Shown piece by piece: positions 880 through 15,645 of a stretch of DNA of 46,894 bases. The stretch lies in IMG/VR virus record IMGVR_UViG_3300007956_000005, positions 1-46,894 of that record, one strand, 5' to 3'. The notes beneath the pieces are model-generated. The model made no database searches and was not told the DNA's origin. It was given only the letters and a program-made list of their open reading frames with translations. A program made the translations under genes and the position numbers. This stretch comes from a virus (taxonomy: Duplodnaviria > Caudoviricetes). The first letter of the stretch is position 1. Each line of letters begins with the position of its first letter.

Positions 880-1586
880 TACGCCGCCCCCTGCAATTCT
901 AAGGTTTCGGGGTTGTCTATAATAAAGGGACTCTTACTTGCCTGAGTTGCTTTGCCCCCCTTCAATTTGAGTCCTACTATAACGGGACCACTATATAGAT
1001 TCACCAGGTCCGATTTGTCCCCGTCTATCACTTGGCGTCCTAAATACGTTTTAGGCAATCCCCCACGAAATACCGCAGATATGGGAACGTTAGTTTTCAG
1101 CGCTCTTTTAACCTGGTTTTGGTAACCAGGGGCGGCGCTATATGAAAACATTAATTTATAGTTTTCTGGAGTCCGTCCCAATCTCGCCGCTAATTTTGTG
1201 TAGTCATATAGTAGAGCCTGGGGAAACATTTGCGGAATCCCGTATTTTTCCCAGGGAATATCTGAAATGGTATTCAGTCTAAACGCTGCAAGCTTCCCCC
1301 GTTTATTGCACCTGGTAATAAATGCGGCAATTTCTTTTATAAGCATTTTCAAAAACAATTCGGGGTTGCTATGCCATAAATCAGATTTTGATTGTCTGGC
1401 ATTTGCGACGGAATGCATTTGCCCACGCCCTGCAAAAACCAGGCAAGGATCTTTACATTCAGCGATGAGTTGAGAAGGGCAGATAATAGAGTCGGGCATT
1501 AAAGAAAGACTCGCAATTTCGTATTCCGTCCCTTTTTGGGTTTTCATGATTTTTGTATTGCTGGCATTTGTGTTTAACAATTTCAT
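879..1586 (-). CDS. Gene product 88 (GP88)-family protein with Cys cluster
   Basis: Motifs ICP-x5-C-x3-CL, GRG, FRLNTISDIPWE, YDYTK, IDGDKSDL, VGLKLKG; strong SD AAAAGGA. Confidence 0.7.
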   Translation of the reverse strand: MKLLNTNASNTKIMKTQKGTEYEIASLSLMPDSIICPSQLIAECKDPCLVFAGRGQMHSVANARQSKSDLWHSNPELFLKMLIKEIAAFITRCNKRGKLAAFRLNTISDIPWEKYGIPQMFPQALLYDYTKLAARLGRTPENYKLMFSYSAAPGYQNQVKRALKTNVPISAVFRGGLPKTYLGRQVIDGDKSDLVNLYSGPVIVGLKLKGGKATQASKSPFIIDNPETLELQGAA

Positions 1587-1646
1587 TTTTTTTTGGTCCT
1601 TTTGTTTAGCTAGTAAAAATCAGGTGGTTAAATCCTGATTCCTAAA

Positions 1647-1675
1647 TACCATAACAAAAAGATTCCCATTTGCCA
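1647..1675 (-). promoter_or_regulatory. leftward early promoter, weak -35 ATGGCA - N17 - TATGGT
   Basis: Spacing is correct; GANTC in the spacer; followed by a 5' hairpin (AATCAGG..CCTGATT) and the gp88 leader. Confidence 0.4.
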
Positions 1676-1806
1676 TAACTAAAACGAACCTAAAATTTTT
1701 ATTTATTAAAACATAGATTTTAGTATTTTCGGGCTATTTCAATATCTTACCAGGGGGGTAGATGTTAGCGATACCATGATCACCTAAGTAGCCCTTTAAT
1801 TATGAT

Positions 1807-1819
1807 TGACGTGCGAGTA
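1807..1819 (+). repeat. 13-bp direct repeat TGACGTGCGAGTA, copy 1
   Basis: Identical to 2064..2076; overlaps a TTGACG -35-like hexamer. Confidence 0.85.
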
Positions 1820-1864
1820 TTTTTTAAACTACAACTGATTCCACTGGAGCAGGAGAATCCCAAA

Positions 1865-2056
1865 ATGATACTAAACCCTGAAGTGGCAAAAGAGGTAGGC
1901 GAGGCAATTATAGATGCCTCAGAGCGAAGCACTGAAGATAGCAAAGACCACTATGTTGTCTACTTAGATGAATTAGGAAAGGCTGTCTGCATGGCTGTAG
2001 ACCCTGATGTCCATAGTTACGATTACAACATAATTGTTCATGTAACGTCGCCCTAA
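1865..2056 (+). CDS. small acidic hypothetical protein (63 aa, start MILNPEVA)
   Basis: GGAG SD upstream of ATG 1865 favours this start over 1802; has its own terminator. Confidence 0.65.
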   Translation: MILNPEVAKEVGEAIIDASERSTEDSKDHYVVYLDELGKAVCMAVDPDVHSYDYNIIVHVTSP

Positions 2057-2063
2057 ATACATC

Positions 2064-2076
2064 TGACGTGCGAGTA
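2064..2076 (+). repeat. 13-bp direct repeat TGACGTGCGAGTA, copy 2
   Basis: Identical to 1807..1819. Confidence 0.85.
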
Positions 2077-2081
2077 AAATC

Positions 2082-2106
2082 AGTCCCTTAGCGGGACTTT
2101 TTTTTT
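2082..2106 (+). terminator. rho-independent terminator
   Basis: AGTCCC-ttagc-GGGACT followed by a T-run. Confidence 0.85.
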
Positions 2107-2119
2107 GCCTACGCCCCAA

Positions 2120-2194
2120 ATAAAAACCCCCCAATCCGAAGACTAGGGGGTTATCACTACACAGTGAAGAGAGTGAGTTGGGAGGATACTCACA
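2120..2194 (-). ncRNA. candidate small RNA 1 (~75 nt) with anti-SD loop
   Basis: Promoter TTGCAC-N17-TATCTT (2200..2228, minus); hairpin GUGAGU-aUCCUCCCa-ACUCAC, hairpin UCACU..AGUGA, then a cUUCGg terminator with U-run (2122..2152); no ORF. Confidence 0.6.
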
Positions 2195-2199
2195 TCAAA

Positions 2200-2228
2200 A
2201 AGATAACGAATCACTTAACTAAGTGCAA
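2200..2228 (-). promoter_or_regulatory. sigma70 promoter of sRNA-1 with operator CACTTAACTAAGTG (2212..2225) and TGATTCG site
   Basis: TTGCAC-N17-TATCTT; perfect inverted repeat CACTTA-ac-TAAGTG. Confidence 0.6.
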
Positions 2229-2245
2229 GCTTTATTTTTTTGTTC

Positions 2246-2275
2246 TTGACTCCAACTAATACCCATAACTATGGT
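2246..2275 (+). promoter_or_regulatory. integrase promoter TTGACT-N18-TATGGT with operator CCCATAACTATGGT (2262..2275)
   Basis: Sigma70-like hexamers 33 nt upstream of the integrase start; the operator overlaps the -10. Confidence 0.6.
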
Positions 2276-2307
2276 TAGTCATCCGCATAACCACGGGAGG
2301 TTGTAGA

Positions 2308-3426
2308 ATGGGATCGATTAAATATTTGGAACGGCATCAGCTATCCACAGGTGAAATATCTTGGGGTGCAAACCCCTCAAAGGCTGTTAGAGAGGCCTTA
2401 CTAGTTAAGTACGAAAGCTATAAGGATAAAAAAGATGCCGTAGACCGCTGTATGGAGTGGGAGAAGGCATTTCTCGACTACAAACGAGGTATGGACAGGA
2501 AAAAACATATTAGCGAGAACTCTGTTAATGGTTTGGTTGCTGCCTATAAAAATACAAGCAATTGGGACCGTCTTTCGGTTAATAGTAAGAACACCTATAA
2601 TCAATTGATACATTCTGTGATGGAAACTCGCATTGGGCGGTCAAATATCACCTTTGGGCAGACCCTACATCACAATATTACGGTAAAAGTAGCTGAATCC
2701 TTACACAAGCAACTGTGTAATGACGTGAGTGAACATCGTGCCAACCATGTATGTAAAGTTTTACGGCGTGTGTGGTTCGTAGGATTCCGTTTAGGCCTTA
2801 CACGCTCCAATCCATTTTCTAAGATGGGTTTAGTAACACTGCCTTCCAGAGATGTGCGTTGGGAGAAGGGACACGTAGATATATTTGTGAAACAGGCTGA
2901 TAAAATGGGCCTCACATCTATCGGTACGTTAGCTTTAATGTGCTATCATCTATGCCAGCGTATTGGTGACATGAGGCAGATGCGCTGGGGTAATTATGAC
3001 TTACAAGGGGATGGTTTCTTCGACTTTGTACAAGAAAAGAGCCGTACAGTGCGTAAACCTCAAGGGAACCTGGTATCTGTACCTGTGTACGATGAAGTAC
3101 TCAAAGAACGCCTAGGCCGTCTTACCCGTGGTGGTAAGGATGATTTCATTATTCTCAATGAGCGTACTGGTAGGCCATACACACGGTGGGCTTATAAGGC
3201 TGTAGCAGAGGTACGTAAGGCCGCTGGTCTACCAGAAGAACTCAAGATCTCTGATCTTAGACGTACAGGGGCCACTGAGGCTGGCGAAGCTGGCCTGACA
3301 GAGGATGAGATCATGTCACTTACAGGACATACATCCCGTGAGGTTGTCAGTGTTTATGTAAAGAAAACCCGTAGGATGGCGTCCACCGCAGCAAGAAAGA
3401 GGCATGAAAATGAGCGATATCAATAA
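2308..3426 (+). CDS. int: tyrosine integrase
   Basis: Catalytic motifs QRIGD (R), EKS (K), DLRRT, TGH, VY; N-terminal arm and core-binding regions; GGGAGG SD. Confidence 0.92.
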   Translation: MGSIKYLERHQLSTGEISWGANPSKAVREALLVKYESYKDKKDAVDRCMEWEKAFLDYKRGMDRKKHISENSVNGLVAAYKNTSNWDRLSVNSKNTYNQLIHSVMETRIGRSNITFGQTLHHNITVKVAESLHKQLCNDVSEHRANHVCKVLRRVWFVGFRLGLTRSNPFSKMGLVTLPSRDVRWEKGHVDIFVKQADKMGLTSIGTLALMCYHLCQRIGDMRQMRWGNYDLQGDGFFDFVQEKSRTVRKPQGNLVSVPVYDEVLKERLGRLTRGGKDDFIILNERTGRPYTRWAYKAVAEVRKAAGLPEELKISDLRRTGATEAGEAGLTEDEIMSLTGHTSREVVSVYVKKTRRMASTAARKRHENERYQ

Positions 3427-3571
3427 GGCCAGGTCAGCATTTGAGCAGGAACTGAAGAAAATACTTGAGGCTGCGGGTGTGCCAGATGCCCCAGTTAACG
3501 GTTTGACCGAAAGGTTCATTGATTTTGTTTATGCTATTAGAGAGGAATTGAGGAAGACAGATGGACGGTAA
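3410..3571 (+). CDS. small hypothetical protein (53 aa, MSDINKARSAFEQ...)
   Basis: Manual translation; overlaps the integrase end; GAGG SD. Confidence 0.6.
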   Translation: MSDINKARSAFEQELKKILEAAGVPDAPVNGLTERFIDFVYAIREELRKTDGR

Positions 3572-3716
3572 GCTACCTGTAGATATTGAGCGCCATTTAG
3601 AGTCCTTGGGTATTCTGGCGAAGAACCCCCTTGATGAACACGAAGATAAACCTCACCCCAACGTATTTGAATTAACTAAGGTACAGTGGGATGAAAAGGG
3701 AGAACCCCATTGGTAG
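3561..3716 (+). CDS. small hypothetical protein (51 aa, MDGKLPVDIERHL...)
   Basis: Manual translation; fills the gap to thyX; GAGG SD. Confidence 0.6.
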   Translation: MDGKLPVDIERHLESLGILAKNPLDEHEDKPHPNVFELTKVQWDEKGEPHW

Positions 3717-4441
3717 AGATTTCAGCTAAACTTGTTGGCCTTACGCAACCCACTAACAATGTGGAAGCTAGCACCCCAGAGGAGTTGATATCGTACTCCG
3801 CTAGAGTATCAAACCCAGCTAACCAGAGTAATCACTCTAGCGCCCCAGGCCTACTTAACTACTGCATGAAGAATAAACACTGGTCTGTATTTGAGATGGC
3901 TAACGCTGTTGTAGAGGTTAAGGCTCCTAGGGATATAACCAGGCAGCTATTGCGTCACCGCAGTTTCAGTTTCCAAGAGTTCAGTCAGAGGTACTCTGAT
4001 GAAATACGGATGACTAATCGTGAGTATCGTAGGCAAGATAAAAAGAACCGCCAAAACTCCATCGATGATCTTAGTGAAGCAGTCACAAAAAAAGTAAATA
4101 ACAAACAGTTGCATGTCCGTGCGTTAACTTTCGATTCATATCACAAATTGCGAGAGTATGGTGTAGCCAAAGAGACGGCCCGTGCGCTGCTTCCAGAAGG
4201 GCTGACTATGTCTACCTTATACGTGAACGGCACACTACGGTCCTGGCTACATTACCTTGAGGTACGGGACGATGAGGGTGTAACTCAATGGGAGCATGTC
4301 CTTTTGGCTCGGAAGATTAAAGAGGTATTATCCCCTGCGTTCCCCATTATTATGGGTGGTAACACTCAGAAGAGTAATAACAGAGGTGAACATGCAGAAC
4401 AAAAAATACTGAGAGAAAGGATAAAGAATCAGTATGGTTAA
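3710..4441 (+). CDS. thyX: FAD-dependent thymidylate synthase
   Basis: Signature RHRSFSFQEFSQRY, HWSVFE, ARALLP, LRSWLHY; TTG start with GGGAG SD. Confidence 0.95.
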   Translation: MVEISAKLVGLTQPTNNVEASTPEELISYSARVSNPANQSNHSSAPGLLNYCMKNKHWSVFEMANAVVEVKAPRDITRQLLRHRSFSFQEFSQRYSDEIRMTNREYRRQDKKNRQNSIDDLSEAVTKKVNNKQLHVRALTFDSYHKLREYGVAKETARALLPEGLTMSTLYVNGTLRSWLHYLEVRDDEGVTQWEHVLLARKIKEVLSPAFPIIMGGNTQKSNNRGEHAEQKILRERIKNQYG

Positions 4442-4486
4442 GGGTGACCCGACCAATTATAACCAATCCAATCCAATGACCTGTGT

Positions 4487-4499
4487 TAAGTCATTGAAA
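4487..4499 (-). promoter_or_regulatory. IHF-like site, left att arm
   Basis: Reverse complement TTTCAATGACTTA has one mismatch to WATCAANNNNTTR. Confidence 0.45.
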
Positions 4500-4510
4500 T
4501 TGTTTAATTT

Positions 4511-4548
4511 TGGTTGCGGGGGTAGGATTTGAACCTACGACCTTCAGG
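4511..4548 (-). mobile_element. attP: attP core: 3' half of tRNA-fMet(CAT)
   Basis: Minus strand reads CCTGAAGGTCGTAGGTTCAAATCCTACCCCCGCAACCA (anticodon-stem 3' strand, T-arm, acceptor strand, CCA of alphaproteobacterial initiator tRNA); 5' half absent; AT-rich flanks. Confidence 0.85.
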
Positions 4549-4586
4549 GTCTGCGAAACTTATGTAAAAATAAATAGATACAGAGA

Positions 4587-4599
4587 TATCAATTAGTTA
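4587..4599 (+). promoter_or_regulatory. IHF site, right att arm
   Basis: TATCAATTAGTTA is an exact match to WATCAANNNNTTR. Confidence 0.55.
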
Positions 4600-4626
4600 G
4601 GCTACAACTTAATCACTTTGGTAAGG

Positions 4627-4668
4627 ACCATAATTAACTGTTGACTAATGAACCATTGACTGTATCCT
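4627..4668 (+). promoter_or_regulatory. primase promoter TTGACT-N16-TATCCT preceded by operator ACCATAATTAACTG
   Basis: Operator-like 14-mer at 4627..4640 abuts the -35 at 4641..4646. Confidence 0.5.
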
Positions 4669-4714
4669 ACGGATACCCCGTCCAGGGGTAACGTATATAT
4701 GGGAGTATATACAC

Positions 4715-5497
4715 ATGAATTTTAGTTACCGTGATCAATGGGAAATACTACAAGCAATAAATCTTACGGATGGTGAGCATAAAGCAATAGACTGCCCGTT
4801 CTGTGGTGGACGTAAGAAATTCAGTATTTCCAAGATAGATGGCAAGACTTTATGGAACTGTTATAGGGCTAGCTGTAACGCTAAAGGTGTGAACGCTGGC
4901 TCTAGATCCATAGAGGAAGCCAAAGCATATATGGCTGGTACAAACAAAACTAAGATAGAGCGTAAGACTACACCTCTACCTACAATGACTACGCCTATAA
5001 GAAACCACCCTAAATCAATAGAGTATCTTAAATCTGTTAACTCATATGAAGCCTACGAGAAGGGAAGTATCACGGTACGATACGCCCCTGGAGAAGATAG
5101 AGTCCTATTTTATACGAGAGATAAAGAAGGTGCTGTAGGACGTAACATGAAAGGGTACGGACCTAAGTGGTGGACCTATGGGGATACAACGTCAGGTATA
5201 CACGTTGGTACAGGATCTACAGCGGTACTTGTAGAGGATGTAGCTTCTGCTTGTGCAGTTTCACGGTGTAGTAACCTGGTAGGTGTAGCTTTGTTAGGAA
5301 CCAACCTAACTAAAAACCTTAGTAAATCCTTAAATGTGTATAAAAAACTTATTATTATTCTTGACAATGATGCAAAACAAAAGGCAATGTGCATGTTGCG
5401 AGGGTTAGATATGCCCTCAACAATGAGAATAACTAAGTCTGATCTAAAGACACTTAGTTTAAAAGATATTGAGAGGCTTATATACGATGTTACTTGA
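4715..5497 (+). CDS. DNA primase (Zn-finger + TOPRIM)
   Basis: CPFCGG...CYRASC Zn-binding domain; VLVED and LDND TOPRIM acidic motifs. Confidence 0.9.
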   Translation: MNFSYRDQWEILQAINLTDGEHKAIDCPFCGGRKKFSISKIDGKTLWNCYRASCNAKGVNAGSRSIEEAKAYMAGTNKTKIERKTTPLPTMTTPIRNHPKSIEYLKSVNSYEAYEKGSITVRYAPGEDRVLFYTRDKEGAVGRNMKGYGPKWWTYGDTTSGIHVGTGSTAVLVEDVASACAVSRCSNLVGVALLGTNLTKNLSKSLNVYKKLIIILDNDAKQKAMCMLRGLDMPSTMRITKSDLKTLSLKDIERLIYDVT

Positions 5498-5742
5498 TAA
5501 AATAGAAAACACAATTAGATCCGTATATGATTGGCCCTACTTGATTTCTGATACTCAGGCTAGACATATTAGGAATTCACGTAGATCTATAGATAAATCA
5601 GACCGTTACGGAATTAGCACTGCTACCGCAATGGGTACATATTTACTTCATCCACACCTTGGCCCGCCGACTTTTTAAGTCTAAAGGAGCCGTGCAGAAT
5701 ACTACTGCATTATTAACAACCTAAAATACTAAAAGGTGTACT

Positions 5743-5949
5743 ATGAAGTTACGAGCGCTAGTCCTCCTGGACTACGATTTACCAGATGCGGGATTAATTG
5801 AAGCTGCCGATCAACAAAGAGCGCTTCAAATTAAAATCGATGAGATCACTAAGGATAACCCTAACATTGTTTACAGTACTGTAGACATGCGTGAGCGCAG
5901 AGGTGACACACAGCCTGATCTGAAAAAAATGAAATTTCGTCAGACATAA
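5743..5949 (+). CDS. small hypothetical protein
   Basis: 68 aa ORF with AAGG SD and its own terminator. Confidence 0.7.
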   Translation: MKLRALVLLDYDLPDAGLIEAADQQRALQIKIDEITKDNPNIVYSTVDMRERRGDTQPDLKKMKFRQT

Positions 5950-5982
5950 GTATCTGAAACTAAACAATTAAAATATTTAAAT

Positions 5983-6012
5983 GGCCCTGGGTTTTATCTG
6001 GGGTCTTTTTTT
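5983..6012 (+). terminator. rho-independent terminator
   Basis: GGCCCTGGG-tttta-TCTGGGGTC followed by a T-run. Confidence 0.75.
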
Positions 6013-6015
6013 GTC

Positions 6016-6045
6016 TTGATTACCATTACAATGGTCTTTTATAAC
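6016..6045 (+). promoter_or_regulatory. helicase promoter TTGATT-N18-TATAAC with operator ACCATTACAATGGT (6022..6035)
   Basis: Perfect inverted repeat ACCATT-ac-AATGGT in the spacer. Confidence 0.65.
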
Positions 6046-6088
6046 GTGAGTGTAGCATCACGCTACTGCTAGCTAGAAAGGACCAATA

Positions 6089-7306
6089 ATGGATAAAGCA
6101 TTGTTGAAGACCTTATTGTCTTCAGAATTTTATCAAGCAAACAAAACAAAAATGAGGCAGTCGTTATTCACAGGTAACAATGCAGAGGTTTATAAAACCA
6201 TTGCTCAAGCACAGGACAAGTATGACCAAGATATAAGTACCAACGATATCTTAGCTATCTGGGCAACTAATCACCCTGTCGCAACAATCGCTGAAAAAGA
6301 AGATTTTGAAGACACTTTAACCGCAGTCAGAGAACAACAGTCTCTAACACCTGAAATAGCAAAGGATGTTATCGGGGATCTTTGGCGTAAGGAAACAGGT
6401 AGGGATATCACTACCCTGGGTATAAAGATAGCTGAAGGCCACGTTGAGGCAATGGCTACTCTAAAGAGCCTGTTGGAGCGTACCTCTGAAGATTACCTAC
6501 CTGATGACTATGGTCCTGCAACTACTGACGATCTGTATGAGTTACTGGCGCAAGCGAGTGATGAGTCTCGCTGGAAATTTAATATAAACCAGTTGTCACG
6601 TCATGTGTACGGTGTCGGTCCCACAGAGTTTATGATCATATTTGCAAGGCCTGAGACAGGTAAGTCGGCCTTAGCAGTCAGCCTATGTGCATCCCCTGAT
6701 GGTTTCTGTCAGCAAGGAGCAAAGGTTTTGTACATAGGTAACGAGGAAGCAACCCGCCGCACTAAGCTACGGGCAATACAATCCTTCACAGGTATGAGTA
6801 CTAGTGACATACAGGCCAATCCTGATCTAGCTTCTAGCCGATACTTAGCTATTCGTGATCGTTTGATTATGAAGGATGCCCAGGAGTGGGACATGACTAT
6901 GTTAGATGGTTATGTATCTCGTATTAAGCCTGATGTTTTAGTTATAGACCAATTGGACAAGGTCAATGTAGCGGGTCAGTTTGGTGGCACACACGAAAAG
7001 CTTCGTGAGATATACCGACAAGCACGGGAACTAGCCAAACGACACGAATGTGCAATCATTGCAGTATCCCAGGCGAGTGCTGAAGCAGAAGGACGTGTAC
7101 GTCTAGATTTCTCTATGATGGAGAACAGTAGAACAGGTAAGGCAGCGGAAGCTGATTTGATCTGTGGTGTAGGCAAATCATCTGGTGAAGATGATGATGG
7201 TCCTGATCCTACTAGGTTCTTACAAATATCTAAAAACAAATTGTCGGGGTGGCATGGTCAGGTGATCTGCAATCTACAAGCCGATATCACACGGTATGTA
7301 GACTGA
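6089..7306 (+). CDS. SF4 (DnaB-like) replicative helicase
   Basis: Walker A ARPETGKS, Walker B VLVIDQLD, VSQAS, KAAEAD, ISKNK. Confidence 0.92.
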   Translation: MDKALLKTLLSSEFYQANKTKMRQSLFTGNNAEVYKTIAQAQDKYDQDISTNDILAIWATNHPVATIAEKEDFEDTLTAVREQQSLTPEIAKDVIGDLWRKETGRDITTLGIKIAEGHVEAMATLKSLLERTSEDYLPDDYGPATTDDLYELLAQASDESRWKFNINQLSRHVYGVGPTEFMIIFARPETGKSALAVSLCASPDGFCQQGAKVLYIGNEEATRRTKLRAIQSFTGMSTSDIQANPDLASSRYLAIRDRLIMKDAQEWDMTMLDGYVSRIKPDVLVIDQLDKVNVAGQFGGTHEKLREIYRQARELAKRHECAIIAVSQASAEAEGRVRLDFSMMENSRTGKAAEADLICGVGKSSGEDDDGPDPTRFLQISKNKLSGWHGQVICNLQADITRYVD

Positions 7307-7830
7307 TGGGGAAACGATCTAGTTTTGAGAGAAAGCCCCGTGATTACTATAGAACTCCTGTAGAAGCAGTCGCACCTATTAGACCCTTCATCCAAGAGGT
7401 TCAGACGTTTTGTGAGCCGTGTGCGGGTGATGGGGCATTGATACGCAGTCTACTTACAATGGACCTAACGTGTGTCAGTGCATTCGATATAGATCCTCAG
7501 AAGATTGGCATCGATATACTGGATGCCACCCAGCTTGAGGAACATCATCTTAACAATGCAGATATTATTGTAACGAACCCGCCCTGGGAGCGTTCACTCC
7601 TACACTCGATGATCGAAAGGTTTTCAGACCTGCGGCCTACCTGGCTGCTATTTGATGCTGATTGGATTCACACAAAACAGGCCATCCCCTTCCTGCCACG
7701 GCTTAGAAAAATAGTAAGCATCGGGCGGGTAAAATGGTTCGATAAAACCGCAGGGAAAGACAATGCCTGTTGGTATCTTTTTGATCGTTATGACGAAAGT
7801 TATAACACTAAATTCTACGGGAGAACATGA
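7306..7830 (+). CDS. DNA N6-adenine/N4-cytosine methyltransferase
   Basis: DYYRTP, EPCAGDG (SAM binding), TNPPW (catalytic); ATG at 7306 overlaps the helicase TGA. Confidence 0.85.
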   Translation: MGKRSSFERKPRDYYRTPVEAVAPIRPFIQEVQTFCEPCAGDGALIRSLLTMDLTCVSAFDIDPQKIGIDILDATQLEEHHLNNADIIVTNPPWERSLLHSMIERFSDLRPTWLLFDADWIHTKQAIPFLPRLRKIVSIGRVKWFDKTAGKDNACWYLFDRYDESYNTKFYGRT

Positions 7831-8009
7831 TGCTTAATGAACATGACCTCAAAGAGTTTTATGAACTGCTTGAAAAGAAGCAGGAAGAATATTCCAGCGA
7901 AAAAAAGCCTGAACTTAAAAGCCTTATAGATGAGCAAGTAGATCTTCTCCAGGCACTCATATCTGTACAGACTAAGATCCTAGCTAAGTTGTCGGGGTTC
8001 AATGTATGA
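7827..8009 (+). CDS. small coiled-coil hypothetical protein
   Basis: ATGA overlaps at both ends; GGGAG SD. Confidence 0.7.
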   Translation: MMLNEHDLKEFYELLEKKQEEYSSEKKPELKSLIDEQVDLLQALISVQTKILAKLSGFNV

Positions 8010-8398
8010 CAAAAACCCTCGTACTAGATCTGGAAACCACCGTCCAACGTTTTGATGGTAAGACAGACAACAGCCCATTTAACCCTAATAACAAGTGTGT
8101 TTCAGCGCACTTTGGTTGGCTAGGCTCTGATACCGTGGATGAAGTAACCCACTTGGTGTTTAATCATAATGATAAGGCTACACCTGATAGCCCAGAACCT
8201 TTGCGTAAGGTTTTGTCTGAGGCTGATATATTAGTTGCCCACAATGCAAAGTTTGATGTTCTCTGGTTGAGGGCAATGGGTATGCCTATCCCCCCTAAAA
8301 TTAGATGCACCATGATCAATGAATACATTCTGGCTAAAGGGCAGCGCACAAAACTTTCTTTGAAAGAAACTGCCCAGCGCAGAGGTGCGGTGGAATGA
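8006..8398 (+). CDS. DNA polymerase A, N-terminal part of the 3'-5' exonuclease (ExoI, ExoII)
   Basis: VLDLETT (ExoI), AHNAKFD (ExoII), CTMINEY..LSLK. Confidence 0.85.
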   Translation: MTKTLVLDLETTVQRFDGKTDNSPFNPNNKCVSAHFGWLGSDTVDEVTHLVFNHNDKATPDSPEPLRKVLSEADILVAHNAKFDVLWLRAMGMPIPPKIRCTMINEYILAKGQRTKLSLKETAQRRGAVE

Positions 8399-10167
8399 TT
8401 ACACAAAAGAAAAGTGACCTAGTCGATGATTTGTTTACGTCAGGTGTCGGCTTTGAAGCCATGCCCTTGTATGATGTAGTCATACCCTATGCAGAAGCGG
8501 ATGTTAAAGCATGTGCAGAGGTGTATCTATCTCAACTGAGCAGTTTTGAGGAAGAAGATAACTTATCTTTAAAACCTATCGTAGTCCTAATGAATGAAAT
8601 GCTTGAGTTCTTAGTGGAGTGCGAAACAAACGGTGTTCAGATAGACTTAGACGTACTCTCTTCTATCGGGAATGAATTTCAGAAGGAGCATGATGAACTC
8701 ACCAAACGCCTAGATGAAATAGTAGAGATGGTAATGGGTGATACTCCTGTAAATTTAAATTCAGGAGCAGATGTATCCAAGCTTATCTACAGTAGAGAGG
8801 TGTCTAATAGAGATTATCATATACAGACATTTCGTATCGGTACTGATGAGCATGGTAGAACACTCCCGCCCCCTAGAATGAACAAGTCGGAGTTTAATAC
8901 CGCAGTACGTTCAAACACTAAGGTTATTCAAAAAACATCTATAGAGTGCTGCCCTGAGTGCGATGGTAGGGGTCAGGTTCAGAAGTATAAGCAAATAACT
9001 AGGTATAAGAATAAGAAACCATATAAAGTTGTAGGCGAAGCTTATAAGAACCTATCCAAGTGTCCTTCCTGTTTAGGGGTAGGGGCTTTCTACATTCCTA
9101 CTGGTAAGGTTGCAGGTTTAAAACTCAGTCCTTTGGGTCCACAGTATGCTGCGGCTCACGGTTTTAAGACTGATAAAGGGACTATTAAACTTCTAATATC
9201 CCACGCAAAAAACAAGAATAACGATATAGCTGTCGAGTTCCTGACTAAGATAAGTAGGCTTTCAGCGGTATCCACTTATTTAACTAGCTTTGTTAAAGGC
9301 ATTGAAACCTGGACACGTCCTAATGGTCTAATACATACAAACTTTAATCAATGCATCACCGCAACAGGGCGTCTGAGTTCTTCCAATATTAACCTGCAAA
9401 ATATGCCAAAACGGGGCTTCCCCGTCCGTAAGGCTATGGTGTCTAGATTTGACTACAAGATTGTTGAATTCGATTACTCAGGATTAGAATTTCGTGTTGC
9501 TGGAGAAGTGTCCCGAGATCCTCAGATTATTGAAGATATTCTGAATGGTAAGGACATCCATAAACAGACTGCTTCTATCATTCATAGAATACCTGCCGAA
9601 GAAGTGACCAAAGAAACTCGTTCCCAAATAAAGTTTCACACGTTTGCACCTCTATATGGTTCGCAAGGGTCAGGTTTAGCGGAACATGAGAAGAAATATT
9701 ACGACGAATTCTTTGTGATCTACAAAGGTCTAAAATCTTACCAGCAACGTCTTATGGATGGAGTTGTTAAGAACGGCATAGTTCAAACTCCTAGTGGCAG
9801 ACAGTACTATTGGCCTAATGCCCGTAGACTAAGAAATGGGCGGGTTACTAACGCTACTCAGGTAGTCAACTACCCCATCCAGGGATTTGCTACTGGGGAT
9901 ATAGTACCACTAGCTTGTGTAAGGGCGTTACGCCTTTTTAAGAGCCATAAACTCAAGTCAAAACTAATTCTAACGGTACACGACTCAATTGTAGTTGACT
10001 GCCATCCAGATGAATTGTCACAGGTCAAAAAAGTTTTAGTCGAGGCTATGGCTAATGTAGGCGAAGAATTAGAGCAACGCTTTGATTACAAACCAGTTTT
10101 ACCGCTAGATGTAGAGATGACTGCGGGTAAGAACTGGTTAGATCAGGATGATATTCCACTTGATTAA
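8395..10167 (+). CDS. polA: DNA polymerase A: ExoIII, DnaJ-type Zn finger and polymerase domain
   Basis: YAEADV (ExoIII); CPECDGRG and CPSCLGVG (CxxCxGxG); TGRLSS, DYSGLEFR (motif A), RSQIKFHTFAPLYG (motif B), VHDS (motif C). Confidence 0.93.
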   Translation: MITQKKSDLVDDLFTSGVGFEAMPLYDVVIPYAEADVKACAEVYLSQLSSFEEEDNLSLKPIVVLMNEMLEFLVECETNGVQIDLDVLSSIGNEFQKEHDELTKRLDEIVEMVMGDTPVNLNSGADVSKLIYSREVSNRDYHIQTFRIGTDEHGRTLPPPRMNKSEFNTAVRSNTKVIQKTSIECCPECDGRGQVQKYKQITRYKNKKPYKVVGEAYKNLSKCPSCLGVGAFYIPTGKVAGLKLSPLGPQYAAAHGFKTDKGTIKLLISHAKNKNNDIAVEFLTKISRLSAVSTYLTSFVKGIETWTRPNGLIHTNFNQCITATGRLSSSNINLQNMPKRGFPVRKAMVSRFDYKIVEFDYSGLEFRVAGEVSRDPQIIEDILNGKDIHKQTASIIHRIPAEEVTKETRSQIKFHTFAPLYGSQGSGLAEHEKKYYDEFFVIYKGLKSYQQRLMDGVVKNGIVQTPSGRQYYWPNARRLRNGRVTNATQVVNYPIQGFATGDIVPLACVRALRLFKSHKLKSKLILTVHDSIVVDCHPDELSQVKKVLVEAMANVGEELEQRFDYKPVLPLDVEMTAGKNWLDQDDIPLD

Positions 10168-10189
10168 TGGTACTTAATTATGGTACATT
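10160..10189 (+). promoter_or_regulatory. promoter TTGATT-N18-TACATT with operator TACTTAATTATGGT (10171..10184)
   Basis: Lies in the polA to SSB-like intergenic gap. Confidence 0.55.
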
Positions 10190-10217
10190 ATAAACTCAAT
10201 TATAAAAGGATACACCA

Positions 10218-11096
10218 ATGGGTGAACTTACAAATATAGAGGCCACTGATCTAGCAGCATTGGCAGAAAAACTGGGCGCAGCCAGTGGTGAAACTGCAAC
10301 AGTAAATATGTTGGAATTAAAGATTAACTACGAAGATGAAGACGATAATGGTGTTCGTTTAAATCTTGGTGATATCTACGTGCGGGAAAGTGATAAAAAC
10401 CACTTTTATGCTAAAAATGTTACCTTTCGCCCCTTGAGTCAGATGCACCAGTACTCTGTGTATAATGCTCAAGAAAAAAAGATGTCGTGCAAAACCCGCC
10501 TAATCGCAAACTTTCGTGAGGAAGCACGGGATACCAATGGCACAATACGATGTGGTAAACCTAGTTCTTCTGAGATGCGTGATCTTACAGAGGAACAACG
10601 GGCCAAGTATTCAGGTATAAAAAATCAAAGGCAGATCCGTGGCCTGGTAAGCTATACAGGTAAGTCATCCTCTGGTGAGGAAAAGACGTATGAAAACCTT
10701 CCAGTTCTAATGCGTTTAAATGGTCAGAATAACTATCAGGTAGATAGTAGCAATAAACTTTCTGCCCCCTTTGAAGCACAGTTTCTAAAACAAATCCCTC
10801 GGGGTTCCAGCATGTGGAATTTCAGTATGGATATTACTACCAAGCGCAGAAAGAGTGCTGCGGGTAAAGCGTACTATACCTACGAGTATACCCCTGATTT
10901 TGGTGTGCAGCTTCCGATAACGAAGGATATCTATGGATCACTTCAGATGATCGATCAGATCATTCAGGATGAGAATGCTTACGTTGATAGTCAGTACTAC
11001 AAGGCACTGAAAGGTGACATGTACGAAGCAGAGGCCTCGGAAGTTTTGGACCGTATGCATGATAGTTTAGATGCCGATTATGAGGACGTAGCTTAA
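10218..11096 (+). CDS. putative ssDNA-binding/annealing protein
   Basis: Position between polA and the exonuclease; acidic C-terminal tail DADYEDVA. Confidence 0.55.
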   Translation: MGELTNIEATDLAALAEKLGAASGETATVNMLELKINYEDEDDNGVRLNLGDIYVRESDKNHFYAKNVTFRPLSQMHQYSVYNAQEKKMSCKTRLIANFREEARDTNGTIRCGKPSSSEMRDLTEEQRAKYSGIKNQRQIRGLVSYTGKSSSGEEKTYENLPVLMRLNGQNNYQVDSSNKLSAPFEAQFLKQIPRGSSMWNFSMDITTKRRKSAAGKAYYTYEYTPDFGVQLPITKDIYGSLQMIDQIIQDENAYVDSQYYKALKGDMYEAEASEVLDRMHDSLDADYEDVA

Positions 11097-11950
11097 TGCT
11101 CCAAGAACTCATTCATATGACAATGGATCAAATGTCTAACGACGAATACGACGATCTAGTTGTGAAGGATGAGTGGATTGATGCCGTTGGTGAAAACATA
11201 AAGCGTGAACTAAAGAAAAGCCTAGCCCCTAGGGGTAAAGATTTTAGACTTCGGGGGTCCAATCTGGGTAAACCACCTTGCGTCCTTCAAATGCAAAAGT
11301 CTGGGGCTGAACCTTCTAGAAAACCTTACCATTTCGTAATGCAGATGCTGCACGGGTATATGATCGAAGAGATTATGACACTCATACTAAAAGTGGCAGA
11401 TGCAAACATTACGGGTGGTAAGGCCAAGGTTTCTTTAGATCTTGAGGGTGTTACCATTAAGGGTGAGGACGATATTCAGATCGATGGTAAAGAGTATGAT
11501 GTGAAATCGTGTTCACCCTGGGCCTTCAACAACAAGTGGAGCGAAGGATATCATGGCTTACGCAAGTCAGATAACTTTGGCTACGTTGGTCAGCTTATGG
11601 CTTACTCAGAGGCACAGGACATACCTGTTGGTGGGTGGCTGGTAGTCAATAAATCCACTGGTGAGGTTTTGGTTGTGGACGCAGACAACAGCCCTTCAGA
11701 ACGCAAAGCAGTTTTGAATAAGTTGAAGTCAACGGTACGCACTATCAAGAGTGATGCACCCTTTAAGCGTTGCTTTGAGCCTGTCAATGATACCTTCAAG
11801 AAAATGCCCACAGGACGCAAGTATCTGAGCAAAGATAACTGTGGAATGTGCGACTTCAAAACCTCTTGTTACCCTGGTGTTAAACTTAAACCGCAGCCTG
11901 AGAGTAAGGCAGCTAATCCACCATTAAAATGGTACATTAAAGAGGCCTAA
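11096..11950 (+). CDS. PD-(D/E)XK (Cas4/RecB-like) exonuclease
   Basis: GEDD..YDVKS, GYVGQLMAY, split Cys cluster (C..CGMCDFKTSC). Confidence 0.8.
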   Translation: MLQELIHMTMDQMSNDEYDDLVVKDEWIDAVGENIKRELKKSLAPRGKDFRLRGSNLGKPPCVLQMQKSGAEPSRKPYHFVMQMLHGYMIEEIMTLILKVADANITGGKAKVSLDLEGVTIKGEDDIQIDGKEYDVKSCSPWAFNNKWSEGYHGLRKSDNFGYVGQLMAYSEAQDIPVGGWLVVNKSTGEVLVVDADNSPSERKAVLNKLKSTVRTIKSDAPFKRCFEPVNDTFKKMPTGRKYLSKDNCGMCDFKTSCYPGVKLKPQPESKAANPPLKWYIKEA

Positions 11951-12303
11951 TGGCAATAACTCCGCAGTCTGCGAAAGCCAAAGGACGCCGATTGCAGCAA
12001 TGGGTGAGGGACAGGCTTTATTCCACTTTTCCTAAACTTGAGGATGGAGATATCCGCTCGACAAGCATGGGTGCTGGTGGAGAAGATCTGTTGTTCTCAC
12101 CCGCTGCCAGACGCTGCTTCCCATACTCCGTGGAATGCAAAAACAATAAAAGTAATGCGATTTATAAAGTGATGGATCAGGCCATCAGTAACTGCCCAAA
12201 GGGCGCTACGCCATTAGCCATAATTAAGGCTGATCACAAAAAGCCTCTAGCAGTTGTTGATGCAGATCACTTTTTCAAATTGGCAAAAAGGAATAAAAAA
12301 TGA
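11950..12303 (+). CDS. Holliday-junction resolvase-like endonuclease
   Basis: AKAKGRRLQ, GED, SVECK (Hjc-like PD-(D/E)XK). Confidence 0.75.
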   Translation: MAITPQSAKAKGRRLQQWVRDRLYSTFPKLEDGDIRSTSMGAGGEDLLFSPAARRCFPYSVECKNNKSNAIYKVMDQAISNCPKGATPLAIIKADHKKPLAVVDADHFFKLAKRNKK

Positions 12304-12620
12304 ATTCAGATAACATTCCTAAAAATTCAATTTCTCTAACTGTGTATTTGGATGATGAGGGTACTACCATCGTCGATACATATTCCAATCTGTCAGACAC
12401 ACTGCCTGATGATGAACAAACGTTCCTAAGATTAATGCTCAAAGGTTTAGAGTTTCACGCATACGCAGGGCCAAATCTATTAGCATCCATAGGTAATATT
12501 GTTGCGATACTTGATACCTATGAGGATGATGATCTGGAATTTGAGCCTGACGAGGAACTCAAAGAAAAGCTACAGGACGCCAAGGTTATACCCATTAATC
12601 GCAAGCCAAGGCTTAACTAA
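12300..12620 (+). CDS. hypothetical protein
   Basis: Coupled ORF in the operon. Confidence 0.7.
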   Translation: MNSDNIPKNSISLTVYLDDEGTTIVDTYSNLSDTLPDDEQTFLRLMLKGLEFHAYAGPNLLASIGNIVAILDTYEDDDLEFEPDEELKEKLQDAKVIPINRKPRLN

Positions 12621-12862
12621 TGGATCGTAACAAAGTGGCCTCAGATGGCCTATCCACCAGCTATTATACCATACCTAATCATGCCAGTGAGTTACGCCAT
12701 CTCATTAGTCATAAGGGCATGTCTAAGTCCCGTGGAGACATCTTTAAGGCTTGCTACAGGCTTGGTGAAAAAGAGGGAACAGATACCCTCTACGACTTAA
12801 ACAAAATGAAGTTTTTTATCGAAGATTTAATTGAAATGCACATGAGAGGAGAACATTTATGA
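12620..12862 (+). CDS. DUF3310-like protein
   Basis: SYY..GDIFKACYRLGEK..YDLNK pattern. Confidence 0.6.
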   Translation: MDRNKVASDGLSTSYYTIPNHASELRHLISHKGMSKSRGDIFKACYRLGEKEGTDTLYDLNKMKFFIEDLIEMHMRGEHL

Positions 12863-13185
12863 ACATGAAAGACTACCAGACACAGGCATCGAAAACCGCC
12901 ATCTATCCTGAGTGTGACGTAATTACATACCCCGCACTGGGTTTGGTATCTGAGGCGGGAGAAGTGGCGGGGAAGGTAAAAAAAGTACTTCGTGATCACA
13001 GTGGTCAATTTCTTCCAGAACAACGTGAGGCCATTGCAGACGAGGTGGGTGATTGCCTTTGGTATATTGCTAGTCTGGCAACCGACTTGGGAATGGGCAT
13101 GGAAGAAATTGCCCAGCGCAATCTTGATAAACTGAACAGTCGCATGGCCCGTGGGGTGCTGGGCGGTAGCGGCGATAATAGATAA
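12859..13185 (+). CDS. mazG: MazG-like NTP pyrophosphohydrolase
   Basis: LGLVSEAGEVAGKVKK..DEVGDCLWY..GSGDNR. Confidence 0.9.
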   Translation: MNMKDYQTQASKTAIYPECDVITYPALGLVSEAGEVAGKVKKVLRDHSGQFLPEQREAIADEVGDCLWYIASLATDLGMGMEEIAQRNLDKLNSRMARGVLGGSGDNR

Positions 13186-13225
13186 CCCCCAAAAATTCAT
13201 AAAATAAAATCAACGGGAGCAGAGA

Positions 13226-14968
13226 ATGCTAAAAAATAGTTACGGGCCTACACTACCGATTAGTGAGCAAATCCATAAAGAAAAATATCGTAGTGAAGGA
13301 GAAACCTTCCACGAAGCAATGACCCGTGTGGCAGAGGCATTGAAAGATGATGAACCACACTTCAATCAGTTTAGAAACATCCTGTATAACCAGCGGTTCT
13401 TACCAGCGGGGCGGGTACAATCGGCTATGGGCGCACCTCGCACTGTTACCCCATACAACTGCTTTGTGAGTGGTACTATTGAAGACAGCATGGAAGGCAT
13501 TATGGATGCGGCGAAGGACGCTGCTAGAACAATGCAGCTTGGTGGTGGAATAGGATATGACTTCTCTACTCTACGTCCACACGGGGCGCTCATTAAGAGC
13601 CTAGATAGCCGCTCTAGTGGCCCTCTTAGTTTTATGGCTATATTTGATAGTGTCTGTCATACTATAGCTTCTGCGGGGCATCGTCGGGGCGCACAGATGG
13701 GTGTACTGCGAGTAGATCATCCTGATATTGAAAAATTCATTCGTGCCAAGAATAATAGCACAGAACTAACAGGTTTTAACATTTCAGTTGGTGTCACTGA
13801 TGCCTTTATGGAAGCTGTTAAAACAGACAGTCAGTTTGATCTGGTCTTTGAGAACACTGTGTACTCCACAGTTAATGCCCGTGCGCTATGGGATGATATC
13901 CTGCGGTCTACATGGGATTGGGCAGAGCCAGGCATCCTGTTTATTGACCGCATCAACCGTAAGAATAATCTGCATTACTGTGAGAATATTGTTGCTACCA
14001 ATCCATGCGGTGAACAGCCGTTACCACCCTACGGGGCGTGTTTGCTGGGGTCATTTAACCTTGCTAAGTATATCGTACAGCATGACGGTAAATACGTCTT
14101 CAATATGAACATGCTAAAGACAGACATTCCGTTTGTGGTACGGGCAATGGATAACGTAGTAGATCGTGCTACTTACCCTCTCCCACAACAAGAGAAGCAA
14201 GCAAAAGACACACGGCGTATGGGCCTTGGTGTTACAGGTGTTGCTAATGCTATTGAATCGCTAGGATTTGATTACGGTACAGATGAGTTCATCCGTGTTC
14301 TGGAAGAGATCATGGGTACAATTCGTGATGTTTGTTATGAAACATCGGTAGAATTAGCACAGGAAAAAGGTGCATTCCCATTATTCAAGAAAGAATACTT
14401 GGACAGTGAATTTGCAAAGACCTTACCCCCTAAGATACGAAAAAGCATTGCGAAGCATGGTATTCGTAACTCTCACCTACTGTCAGTAGCACCTACAGGT
14501 ACAATCAGCCTGAGTGCAGACAACGTATCCAGTGGTATCGAACCTGTCTTTAGTCACTTCTATGACCGTACCATCCAGACATTCGATGGTCCTACCATTG
14601 AGCGAGTAGATGACTATGGCTACCGTGAGTTTGGGGTCAGAGGTAAAACCGCTGATGAACTATCTGTGTTTGACCATGTGCGGGTTCTAAATGTTGCATC
14701 AAAGTATGTTGATAGTGCGTGTAGCAAGACCTGTAATGTAGGTGATGATGTAACTTGGGAACAATTCAAACAGGTATACATGGATGCATATGAGGGCGGT
14801 AGTTCAGGCTGTACGACATTCCGTGCATCTGGAAAAAGATACGGCATTCTGAATGCTTCTGCGTCTGAGGATATTGCTGAAGAAAAGCCCGTGGAAAAAG
14901 ACAATTTCATCGAAGAAGGGGGAGCATGTTATTATGACCCTGCCACTGGACTGCGTAAGTGTGAGTAA
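13226..14968 (+). CDS. nrdJ: class II (adenosylcobalamin-dependent) ribonucleotide reductase
   Basis: PAGR, NCFV, TNPCGEQPL, APTGTIS, C-terminal Cys pair; no beta subunit nearby. Confidence 0.9.
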   Translation: MLKNSYGPTLPISEQIHKEKYRSEGETFHEAMTRVAEALKDDEPHFNQFRNILYNQRFLPAGRVQSAMGAPRTVTPYNCFVSGTIEDSMEGIMDAAKDAARTMQLGGGIGYDFSTLRPHGALIKSLDSRSSGPLSFMAIFDSVCHTIASAGHRRGAQMGVLRVDHPDIEKFIRAKNNSTELTGFNISVGVTDAFMEAVKTDSQFDLVFENTVYSTVNARALWDDILRSTWDWAEPGILFIDRINRKNNLHYCENIVATNPCGEQPLPPYGACLLGSFNLAKYIVQHDGKYVFNMNMLKTDIPFVVRAMDNVVDRATYPLPQQEKQAKDTRRMGLGVTGVANAIESLGFDYGTDEFIRVLEEIMGTIRDVCYETSVELAQEKGAFPLFKKEYLDSEFAKTLPPKIRKSIAKHGIRNSHLLSVAPTGTISLSADNVSSGIEPVFSHFYDRTIQTFDGPTIERVDDYGYREFGVRGKTADELSVFDHVRVLNVASKYVDSACSKTCNVGDDVTWEQFKQVYMDAYEGGSSGCTTFRASGKRYGILNASASEDIAEEKPVEKDNFIEEGGACYYDPATGLRKCE

Positions 14969-14970
14969 CC

Positions 14971-15147
14971 ATGAATAAACCCTATGACGAGGGCTTCCAG
15001 GCCTTCTTTCGGGGGGATTTCATATGTCACTATAGGCTCCGCTCTCACTACCATCGTGAGTGGCAGCGGGGCTTCAATTCAGCGTATTTTTATAACAGGG
15101 ATACCTATGTACAAAGCATTCCAGAAGAATATCTTCGACAAGTATGA
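14971..15147 (+). CDS. small Rmf/CrpP-like protein (58 aa)
   Basis: Manual translation MNKPYDEGFQAFFRGDFICHYRLRSHYHREWQRGFNSAYF..., G-x-x-A-x3-G..C-x-Y..W-x-x-G pattern. Confidence 0.55.
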   Translation: MNKPYDEGFQAFFRGDFICHYRLRSHYHREWQRGFNSAYFYNRDTYVQSIPEEYLRQV

Positions 15148-15529
15148 TGCTCCTGCTAGGGAAAAGGCCAAGAGGTTTTGGCGCTCCCAGGGGTACGTAT
15201 GCACGGACCATAAGGATGAATACGATGTTGATCTTGTTGTAGAGAAAGATAACAAACGATTTTACTGCGAAGTCGAAGTCAAAACTACCTGGCATGGACA
15301 GGAATTTTCCTATGATACATTACACATACCTGCCCGTAAGGCTAAGTTTTTATCTAAGCCAACTCAGTTCATGGTGTTCAATAATAGTATGACTAGAGCA
15401 GCTATCGTGGGGCGCAATAGGTTGTTAAATGCCACCACAGTAACCGTGCCAAACAGAAAGATTGCATTCGGGGAACAGTTCTTTGATGTGCCTAAAAAGG
15501 ATTTATTTTTTGTACCCCTAGAAATATAA
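15107..15529 (+). CDS. PD-(D/E)XK nuclease-fold protein
   Basis: YDVDL...CEVEVK motif; start at MYKAF preferred to 14984. Confidence 0.65.
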   Translation: MYKAFQKNIFDKYDAPAREKAKRFWRSQGYVCTDHKDEYDVDLVVEKDNKRFYCEVEVKTTWHGQEFSYDTLHIPARKAKFLSKPTQFMVFNNSMTRAAIVGRNRLLNATTVTVPNRKIAFGEQFFDVPKKDLFFVPLEI

Positions 15530-15560
15530 AAAGCCCCCAAGTCTATTGACCTAGGAGCCT
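15528..15560 (-). terminator. terminator of the leftward structural operon
   Basis: Minus strand GGCUCCUAGGUC-aaua-GACUUGGGGGCU followed by a U-run. Confidence 0.65.
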
Positions 15561-15574
15561 TCCAATTCTATAAT
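15546..15574 (+). promoter_or_regulatory. near-consensus sigma70 promoter TTGACC-N17-TATAAT driving sRNA-2
   Basis: 11/12 consensus match; no downstream ORF before the terminator. Confidence 0.75.
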
Positions 15575-15580
15575 ATTTGT

Positions 15581-15645
15581 AACGGGGTTGGTCCCCCGTT
15601 TAGCTAGTAAGAAGCCCTCAGATTTAGGTCTGGGGGTTTTTCTTT
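15581..15645 (+). ncRNA. candidate small RNA 2 (~62 nt)
   Basis: Hairpin AACGGGG-uuggu-CCCCCGUU, single-stranded UAGCUAGUAAG, terminator GCCCUCAGA..UCUGGGGGU-UUUU; complementary to three phage RBS regions. Confidence 0.65.

Follow-up and report, generated by a model that had tools for sequence, protein, structure and literature searches.

A predicted multi-target antisense RNA and a candidate protein-operator system in subgroup III HMO-2011-type roseophages

In phage P1, the antisense RNA C4 lies in cis, on the transcript of its target operon, and sits beside a protein repressor, C1, with scattered operators. C4 controls a single antirepressor operon. The C4 RNA of P1 and P7 is described as a small phage RNA whose looped, phage-specific seeds pair around the ribosome-binding site of its own mRNA (PMC12197685), and as being cut from its transcript by RNase P (PMC5499578). 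The CI RNA of satellite phage P4 is likewise described as a short RNA that controls, by base-pairing, the phage operon leading to replication (PMC3632133); it determines immunity and acts by terminating its own transcript prematurely (PMC5499578, PMC3632133). Here we analyse a 46,894-nucleotide (nt) stretch of viral DNA (IMG/VR record IMGVR_UViG_3300007956_000005, the whole of which we call the window) that carries two independent promoter-hairpin-terminator units, at 2120-2228 on the minus strand and at 15546-15645 on the plus strand, encoding the predicted small RNAs (sRNAs) sRNA1 and sRNA2, respectively.

On balance we lean towards an explanation in which these conserved sRNAs would repress translation in trans as part of the core programme of the phage, with the decision between lysis and lysogeny resting on a protein-operator system, for which the 68-aa protein s68 is the best candidate. 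An earlier note on this DNA had correctly recognised both units, and had assigned to them a different role, in which dormancy of the prophage would be maintained by two sRNAs directed at primase and helicase, with no need for a repressor protein. Judged from its sequence, sRNA2 is apparently an undescribed, C4-like, multi-target phage antisense RNA. Like C4, it has two phage-specific seeds, one looped and one single-stranded, that flank ribosome-binding sites according to predicted pairing and covariation; unlike C4, it has its own promoter and terminator, 14 kb from its targets and on the other strand, its predicted targets are three to six distinct leaders and, in addition, one replication gene, and it is kept without the phage attachment site (attP). 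The Rfam C4 model gave no match at E up to 5 in window positions 1-17000. As compared with P4 CI, the sRNA2 sites straddle the ribosome-binding sites of distant genes, and the comparative evidence presented below, in which signs of a protein-operator system are plain, speaks against a role as sole immunity determinant.

The genome in the window is that of an HMO-2011-type roseophage of subgroup III and is incomplete, as determined by comparing gene order and DNA polymerase with isolates. Its gene order is that of the isolates CRP-3, CRP-212, CRP-235 and CRP-738, including the integrase and the transfer RNA (tRNA) att site located, as is typical of the subgroup, upstream of the replication module. 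The DnaJ-type DNA polymerase (8395-10167) is 57-64% identical to those of these four phages and 34-37% identical to those of HMO-2011 and other isolates, and it carries the CXXCXGXG insert that characterises subgroup III (two such motifs were read). Judged from G001, a relative estimated to be 100% complete (52,969 bp; sRNA2 region 91% identical to the window), about 4.5 kb lie outside the window, comprising those early genes read leftward that the window lacks and the start of the late operon.

The loci compared were gathered from five scans of viral sequences and one of metagenomes, with primase or helicase as query (at most 80 loci from each), from one host-genome scan with the helicase alignment, in which two contigs matched, and from the four isolates. 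The comparative set comprises 91 distinct subgroup III loci, on partial contigs, with at least 2.6 kb upstream of primase. Some genomes bear two labels (G001 is L032, G007 is L248, G031 is L234 and CRP-212 is L007). Three variant-looking loci from a pattern scan (G036, G037 and G038) were dropped, having no match to the replication proteins of the window.

sRNA2 and its predicted targets

Folding and conservation indicate that sRNA2 (15581-15645, plus strand) is composed of a 5' hairpin with a UUGGUC loop, a single-stranded second seed and an intrinsic terminator. It is preceded by a conserved promoter (TTGACC-17-TATAAT; 15546-15574, plus strand) in which the operator palindrome described below has no match above 11 bits. 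None of 200 shuffled sequences was as stable as sRNA2 (z = -3.91; opposite strand, z = -3.63). We found the RNA in all 37 subgroup III loci with a readable junction, including 30/30 with attP (23 by pattern, L373 separately and six by eye; L110 ends short of the junction and 49 loci were too short) and 7/7 without attP (six by pattern and L433 by eye), the latter covering four of five att-less lineages. All four isolates carry it. When viral contigs were scanned with the sRNA2 pattern, 28 of 120 matches passed a filter for a hairpin plus terminator, a few of these being false. The anchored pair counts for the sRNA2 stems were chosen for pairing, with about 3 of 27 rows doubtful, and show stem variety only.

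No multi-target unit was detected in HMO-2011, CRP-1, CRP-207 or HTVC033P by a generic detector that recovered sRNA2 in 6/6 subgroup III genomes, and the junctions of phages outside the subgroup, where shown, hold a terminator only. Neither sRNA1 nor sRNA2 matched a family in an Rfam scan of window positions 1-17000. Within the subgroup, the junction of G007 holds a variant with two tandem hairpins bearing GUGGUA loops, that of G031 has a second promoter-terminator unit 540 bp downstream of sRNA2, and in the L383/L448 clade an extra hairpin is inserted between the seeds.

Candidate targets of sRNA2 were ranked by hybridisation energies without target accessibility, using gene calls made for this analysis. 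The best of the 58 initiation regions in the window was the leader of the first leftward early gene (879-1586, minus strand; GP88 family/phrog_1617, with no assigned function), in which 13 bp and 7 bp pair around the Shine-Dalgarno sequence (1593-1618, minus strand; -31.0 kcal/mol). The helicase leader ranked second (6066-6088, plus strand; -26.8 kcal/mol), followed by the leader of an exonuclease open reading frame (ORF) at 8006-8398 (-22.8 kcal/mol). A motif search revealed a site in a second early leader (153-176, minus strand; -22.2 kcal/mol), the gene of which starts at 152, close to where the contig ends. Scanning both strands of the window independently of gene calls again gave the 879-1586 leader as the best non-self site (-30.6 kcal/mol), with the helicase leader fourth (-26.8 kcal/mol). 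The idea that these units act in trans on replication-initiation genes, and sRNA2 on helicase in particular, thus holds in part: such genes are among the likely targets, but the main targets of sRNA2 are early genes.

The top-ranked initiation region belonged to an early gene in 8/9 genomes and, in the ninth (G032), to the gene that comes first behind attP. Four early leaders of G001 bear an sRNA2 site (ranks 1-4 of 70), with helicase at rank 5. Helicase ranked second in the window, fifth in CRP-3 and seventh in CRP-212 and G031, and primase ranked fourth in CRP-738 and third in G030. Overall, helicase, primase or the first gene after attP was within the top seven partners in 8/9 genomes, the exception being CRP-235 (helicase and primase at 18 and 34 of 77). 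The predicted targets are GP88-family genes, DUF932 genes, genes of no known function and helicase, and none is assigned as an antirepressor.

Pairing is arranged in the same way at these leaders, with the UUGGUC loop pairing immediately ahead of the start codon, and the 3' single strand a little upstream of the Shine-Dalgarno sequence, which is itself skipped. The sRNA2 seeds and the target leaders covary by lineage. When nine sRNA2 sequences were paired with nine sets of early genes, the genome's own set was the best column in 6/9 rows, and a genome with the same seeds was the best in the other three; the window row had its best value with G001, most early genes being absent from the window. 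Shuffled sRNA2 reached the observed pairing value in none of 60 trials for any of the five genomes tested.

sRNA1 and the integrase module

The second unit is tied to the integrase. sRNA1 (2120-2193, minus strand), as determined from its fold and conservation, consists of a hairpin with an anti-Shine-Dalgarno loop (UCCUCCCAA), a variable linker and a terminator, and its conserved promoter (TTGCAC-17-TATCTT; 2200-2228, minus strand) stands back to back with the int promoter. No shuffled sequence out of 200 was as stable (z = -4.95; opposite strand, z = -1.89). Its stem varies freely among relatives, with the C-rich loop constant. As judged by eye, sRNA1 lies upstream of int in 26/27 distinct loci with an integrase that shares 40% identity or more with that of the window, and in 0/11 loci with more distant integrases. 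A second integrase type, about 30% identical and with another tRNA att core, which we take to be tRNA-Asn, occupies the same slot without sRNA1 in CRP-738, G013, G015, G029, G030 and G032.

The window integrase is of the tRNA-Met type (2308-3426, plus strand; a tyrosine integrase by PHROG search), and the attP core (4511-4548) corresponds to the 3' end of tRNA-Met and is one base off the element of CRP-3, a subgroup III member shown to integrate there (PMC9038755, PMC6918029). Both had been proposed from the letters alone, as had the position of attP directly upstream of primase, which we place at 166 bp. The further proposal that integration would cut the replication genes off from the int promoter is not confirmed as a means of silencing replication: primase has a promoter of its own downstream of attP (4641-4668); integration alone therefore does not silence replication.

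In the primase leader of the window (4695-4714, plus strand), a 6-bp core (UGGGAG) is complementary to the sRNA1 loop, ranking 7/58 and reaching -16.4 kcal/mol if the stem opens. The claim that sRNA1 targets primase is therefore borne out as far as pairing goes, but the core is short and the window integrase leader, which also pairs with the loop, ranks higher (5/58, accessibility included); primase targeting in the window itself is weakly indicated. Among the relatives, primase ranked 1/70 in G001, and helicase, primase and integrase ranked 1, 2 and 3 of 77 in CRP-235. Integrase was within the top ten sRNA1 partners in 6/8 genomes. In a comparison across 23 loci, the sRNA1 of G001, G003 and L016 ranked first on its own primase leader (several primase starts are uncertain), and in CRP-235, L049 and L072 sRNA1 pairs over 10-12 bp with the helicase leader through unrelated linker seeds (cognate rank 1, 3 and 1 of 23). 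Together, these patterns suggest that sRNA1 probably damps the translation of primase, helicase or integrase, depending on lineage. In the CRP-212 helicase leader (L007:4320-4353), a bipartite sRNA1 site (7 + 7 bp) has an sRNA2 seed site nested between its halves.

sRNA1 shares its C-rich anti-Shine-Dalgarno loop on a variable stem with the Cuckoo/CcsR RNAs of Alphaproteobacteria, which are described as being bound and matured by proteins of the DUF1127 family (PMC4615179, PMC8034643). The phage group encodes a DUF1127 protein as well, possibly an RNA chaperone for the phage sRNAs. Unlike in the CIN1 subgroup of Cuckoo RNAs, its gene is not adjacent; in G001 some 5 kb separate the two, the gene standing where the late operon begins (L032:12144-12305); it has its own promoter, often with an operator, and is found in 11/17 subgroup III sequences and in CRP-1 and CRP-207. 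The Cuckoo RNAs also differ in having two to four adjacent hairpins, each with a CCUCCUCCC loop (PMC4615179), as compared with the single loop of the window sRNA1, UCCUCCCAA, containing CCUCCC and lacking an Rfam match. Two C-rich stretches occur in the sRNA1 of CRP-212 and L356 only.

Operator, s68 and the loss of attP

A 14-bp palindrome at 2212-2225 (21 bits), which we assume to be the 14-bp operator of the earlier note, overlaps the -35 element and spacer of the sRNA1 promoter. The palindrome recurs at other promoters: one copy fills the spacer between the -35 and -10 elements upstream of the major capsid gene (38496-38509; 20.4 bits), another lies in the spacer of a second late promoter (28402-28415; 15.4 bits), and a degenerate copy below the 11-bit cut-off stands just upstream of the -35 element of the sigma70-like primase promoter (TTGACT-16-TATCCT; 4627-4668 with the copy, plus strand). 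Across 13 genomes the consensus, CACYTARYTARGTG, had 67 intergenic and 25 coding matches above 11 bits, intergenic DNA making up 15.5% of the sequence; this ratio is inflated because the matrix was trained on intergenic sites. A copy of at least 8 bits occurs upstream of primase in 67/80 loci with attP as compared with 0/11 att-less loci, and in the closest such pair an A-tract takes the place of the primase-promoter operator. Being palindromic, the operator implies a protein regulator, and its placement at the sRNA1 and late promoters suits a repressor. With a repressor bound inside its promoter sRNA1 would be off, and it would thus belong to the derepressed state.

Family searches revealed no canonical repressor for these sites. 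In agreement with the earlier note, no CI, Cro or other helix-turn-helix (HTH) family was found by PHROG search in the 58 window ORFs or by Pfam search in 19 small window ORFs. The missing part of the genome, to which that note had pointed as a possible source of an HTH repressor, yielded no HTH family in the 11 corresponding ORFs of G001 (Pfam).

The gene that best tracks attP is s68 (5743-5949, plus strand), located between primase (4715-5497, plus strand) and the DnaB-like helicase (6089-7306, plus strand; both assigned by PHROG family search). It is present at this position in 80/80 loci with attP and in 0/11 att-less loci, with loss in five lineages. Since s68 is lost together with attP across the intervening primase gene, we consider it a lysogeny gene and, from this co-occurrence, a candidate regulator (repressor or recombination directionality factor). 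Among the genomes tested it is confined to subgroup III, and it has an invariant basic C-terminal motif. It belongs to no known family, with no Pfam, PHROG or PDB sequence match, and in the ESM Atlas s68 and gp01 fell in unnamed viral clusters only, below 0.9. The monomer model is confident but uninformative (strand-helix-strand, one helix).

Cox of P2 and Apl of 186 are small HTH proteins that serve both as repressor and as recombination directionality factor, and are tied to attP and to promoter control. The s68 protein and the operator appear tied to attP and promoters in a similar way, with the difference that s68 is modelled as strand-helix-strand and has no HTH match.

Integrase, tRNA att core and s68 occur together in 80/91 loci; 8/91 have an integrase but neither att nor s68, and 3/91 have none of the three. 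The tRNA-end pattern was absent from both strands of 14 att-less loci, which, near duplicates included, fall in five places on the helicase tree. The sRNA2 sites in the primase and helicase leaders are nevertheless kept in L381, L383, L445 and L446, and in L356, also att-less, an sRNA1-like unit is retained along with a primase leader rich in G. As sRNA2 and sRNA1-like units persist after the loss of attP, they are likely to be general timing regulators and not the lysogeny switch itself.

Several points weigh against this explanation. The predicted targets of sRNA1 are inconsistent, with primase ranking only 40/67, 71/72, 42/73 and 37/62 in four of eight genomes. No fold match links s68 to DNA binding (Foldseek returned none, and the best VIA result, Z 4.4, involved unrelated half-ferredoxin pieces), and no promoter of its own was found for it. 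The att-less L383 retains strong operator copies at other sites, and a gene distantly similar to s68 (21.6 bits) lies elsewhere in it; the operator binder may therefore be a host factor, or an 80-aa protein encoded by the leading gene of the late operon. Several points also date part of the att losses as recent, in that the att-less L438 is only 0.02 substitutions per site from CRP-738, and L337, which has attP, nests among L381, L383 and L446, so that retention of sRNA2 could lag behind loss of its function. Finally, the absence of attP is a pattern result on partial contigs and no proof of a lytic-only life, with 8/11 att-less loci keeping an integrase.

Timing, immunity and dormancy

How the parts might work together can be outlined from sequence as follows. 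After infection, the host RNA polymerase would read the early, primase and helicase promoters. sRNA2 would accumulate from its operator-free, host-type promoter and occlude each early ribosome-binding site and that of one replisome gene, shutting down the early genes and capping replisome loading, and so acting as a timer that needs no phage polymerase. A dimeric protein would bind the 14-bp palindrome at the early, int/sRNA1, primase, helicase, single-stranded DNA-binding protein and late promoters, and s68 could be that repressor, or else the recombination directionality factor. Once this system had closed the lytic promoters, the sRNA2 promoter would stay on in the prophage, where the RNA could titrate early transcripts that leak through and exclude superinfecting phages whose leaders match. 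sRNA1, found together with the tRNA-Met integrase module, would act as an anti-Shine-Dalgarno RNA of lesser strength. The likely role of sRNA2 is thus that of a timer in lytic growth, with a tighter prophage state as a further effect. A bolder version, in which these marine podophages follow a life cycle that looks repressor-less, a 65-nt RNA programmes the whole early regulon through bipartite pairing encoded in each leader, as both timer and sequence-specific immunity code, and s68 is a master regulator of lysogeny that binds the palindrome with no known DNA-binding fold, is less likely and we put it forward tentatively.

Alternatively, sRNA2 might chiefly be a C4-like RNA for immunity and superinfection exclusion, active beside a protein repressor in lysogens and also in cells already infected, its seeds defining heteroimmunity groups; its presence in att-less relatives would then reflect recent loss or the exclusion of competitors, not timing. 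The consensus, operator-free promoter of sRNA2 is compatible with such a role, and the phage-specific sets of seeds and leaders are as expected for heteroimmunity, which is described for C4 of P1 and P7 (PMC12197685). No multi-target unit was seen in HMO-2011, CRP-1, CRP-207 and HTVC033P, all of which lack this attP layout, but subgroup III is one clade and its difference from subgroups I and II amounts to a single contrast. Some att losses are recent, as this alternative would have it; yet seeds are intact in four att-less lineages, of which L431/L433/L486 has a stem branch of 0.10 and has diverged since, and the integrase-less L383, L445 and L446 (L383 over the part read; the structural half of its contig may hold an integrase) are about 87% identical in DNA, that is, some 13% apart, yet keep loop, seed and sites. 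We regard immunity as the chief role of sRNA2 as rather doubtful.

The dormancy mechanism of the earlier note, which dispenses with a protein repressor, gains from the family searches that found no HTH repressor in the window or in the missing region as read from G001, and from the fact that a replication gene is a predicted target of one or other of the RNAs in all nine genomes ranked. Against it stand the early genes as main targets of sRNA2, the six integrase-positive relatives with another tRNA att core that show no sRNA1, and the palindromic operator, which needs a protein and overlaps the sRNA1 promoter, as well as the tracking of attP by s68 and the separate promoter of primase. The comparison of integrase-positive and integrase-negative relatives, which the note itself had put forward as a check, went against it: both units outlast attP. 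Relatives that lack attP, some of them integrase as well, retain sRNA2 together with its sites in the primase and helicase leaders, and L356 retains an sRNA1-like unit. We consider this mechanism improbable. More improbable still is that the units are not regulatory RNAs but terminator-flanking repeats, with the leader motif being a preferred ribosome-binding sequence. Part of each pairing is indeed generic Shine-Dalgarno, the window sRNA1 match spans 6 bp only, and there is no Rfam family; every copy, however, has a promoter and terminator of its own, folding is strand-asymmetric, sRNA2 pairs on both sides of the Shine-Dalgarno sequence with lineage-specific covariation, and in three lineages sRNA1 pairs over 10-12 bp with helicase leaders, each time via another seed.

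Few marine viruses are as abundant as the HMO-2011-type phages, and CRP-3 integrates with no repressor named. The two descriptions of subgroup III roseophages (PMC9038755, PMC6918029) mention no repressor, and the ISME J paper no small RNA. A literature search, the scope of which left out supplements and most subscription journals, returned nothing joining HMO-2011 with small RNA and nothing on the RNAs of these phages. Coordination of a phage's own regulon in trans by an sRNA with covarying leaders is not among the examples in the accessible parts of the reviews. Under the explanation that we favour, the gap would be filled with named parts in cultured pairs (CRP-3, CRP-212 and CRP-235 on FZCC0040), namely an sRNA with three to six predicted early targets, an operator and s68, and the code formed by seeds and leaders would predict which phages should exclude each other.

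Other candidates were set aside. The 80-aa protein from the head of the late operon was the first candidate for the repressor; L381 and L383 keep it although they are att-less, and homologues occur beyond subgroup III, in CRP-1 and CRP-207, so that its distribution does not follow lysogeny. HTH_33 was found in 6/36 and the F-93 winged helix in 8/36 of its members, all far below cut-off; it has 103 unnamed relatives, three predicted helices and no Foldseek match at E 0.001. Its gene (L032:12473-12709 in G001) has a strong promoter, with an operator next to the -35 element in several phages, and may encode a late regulator. As for the operator itself, another palindrome (ACCATWACWATGGT) together with a direct repeat around gp01 gave way to the palindrome that recurs at promoters.

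Further repeats and small genes were seen around these elements. A conserved 13-bp direct repeat with lineage-specific variants, TGACGTGCGAGTA, at 1807-1819 and 2064-2076, brackets a small gene (1865-2056), the homologue of which adjoins sRNA2 in G031. A second imperfect palindrome (ACCAT-N4-ATGGT) is found at the int and helicase promoters (2262-2275 and 6022-6035), and CCATAAC-type repeats, perhaps arm sites of the integrase, are concentrated at the early promoter and close to attP. Immediately behind int lie two small conserved genes, 3410-3571 (53 aa, helical pattern, 9/17) and 3561-3716 (51 aa, 12/17), which are further candidates for the directionality factor. A short conserved ORF ending in a GPP motif (5487-5678) precedes s68, the leader of which has a conserved hairpin in several relatives (L001, L003 and L007). 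L110, phage DNA of subgroup III within a contig that was binned into a genome labelled Legionellales, has integrase and att core and no sRNA1 before int. In the window, the DNA polymerase is split into the exonuclease ORF (8006-8398) and the polymerase ORF (8395-10167); the polymerase start is at the same place in G001, and the four isolates have a single ORF.

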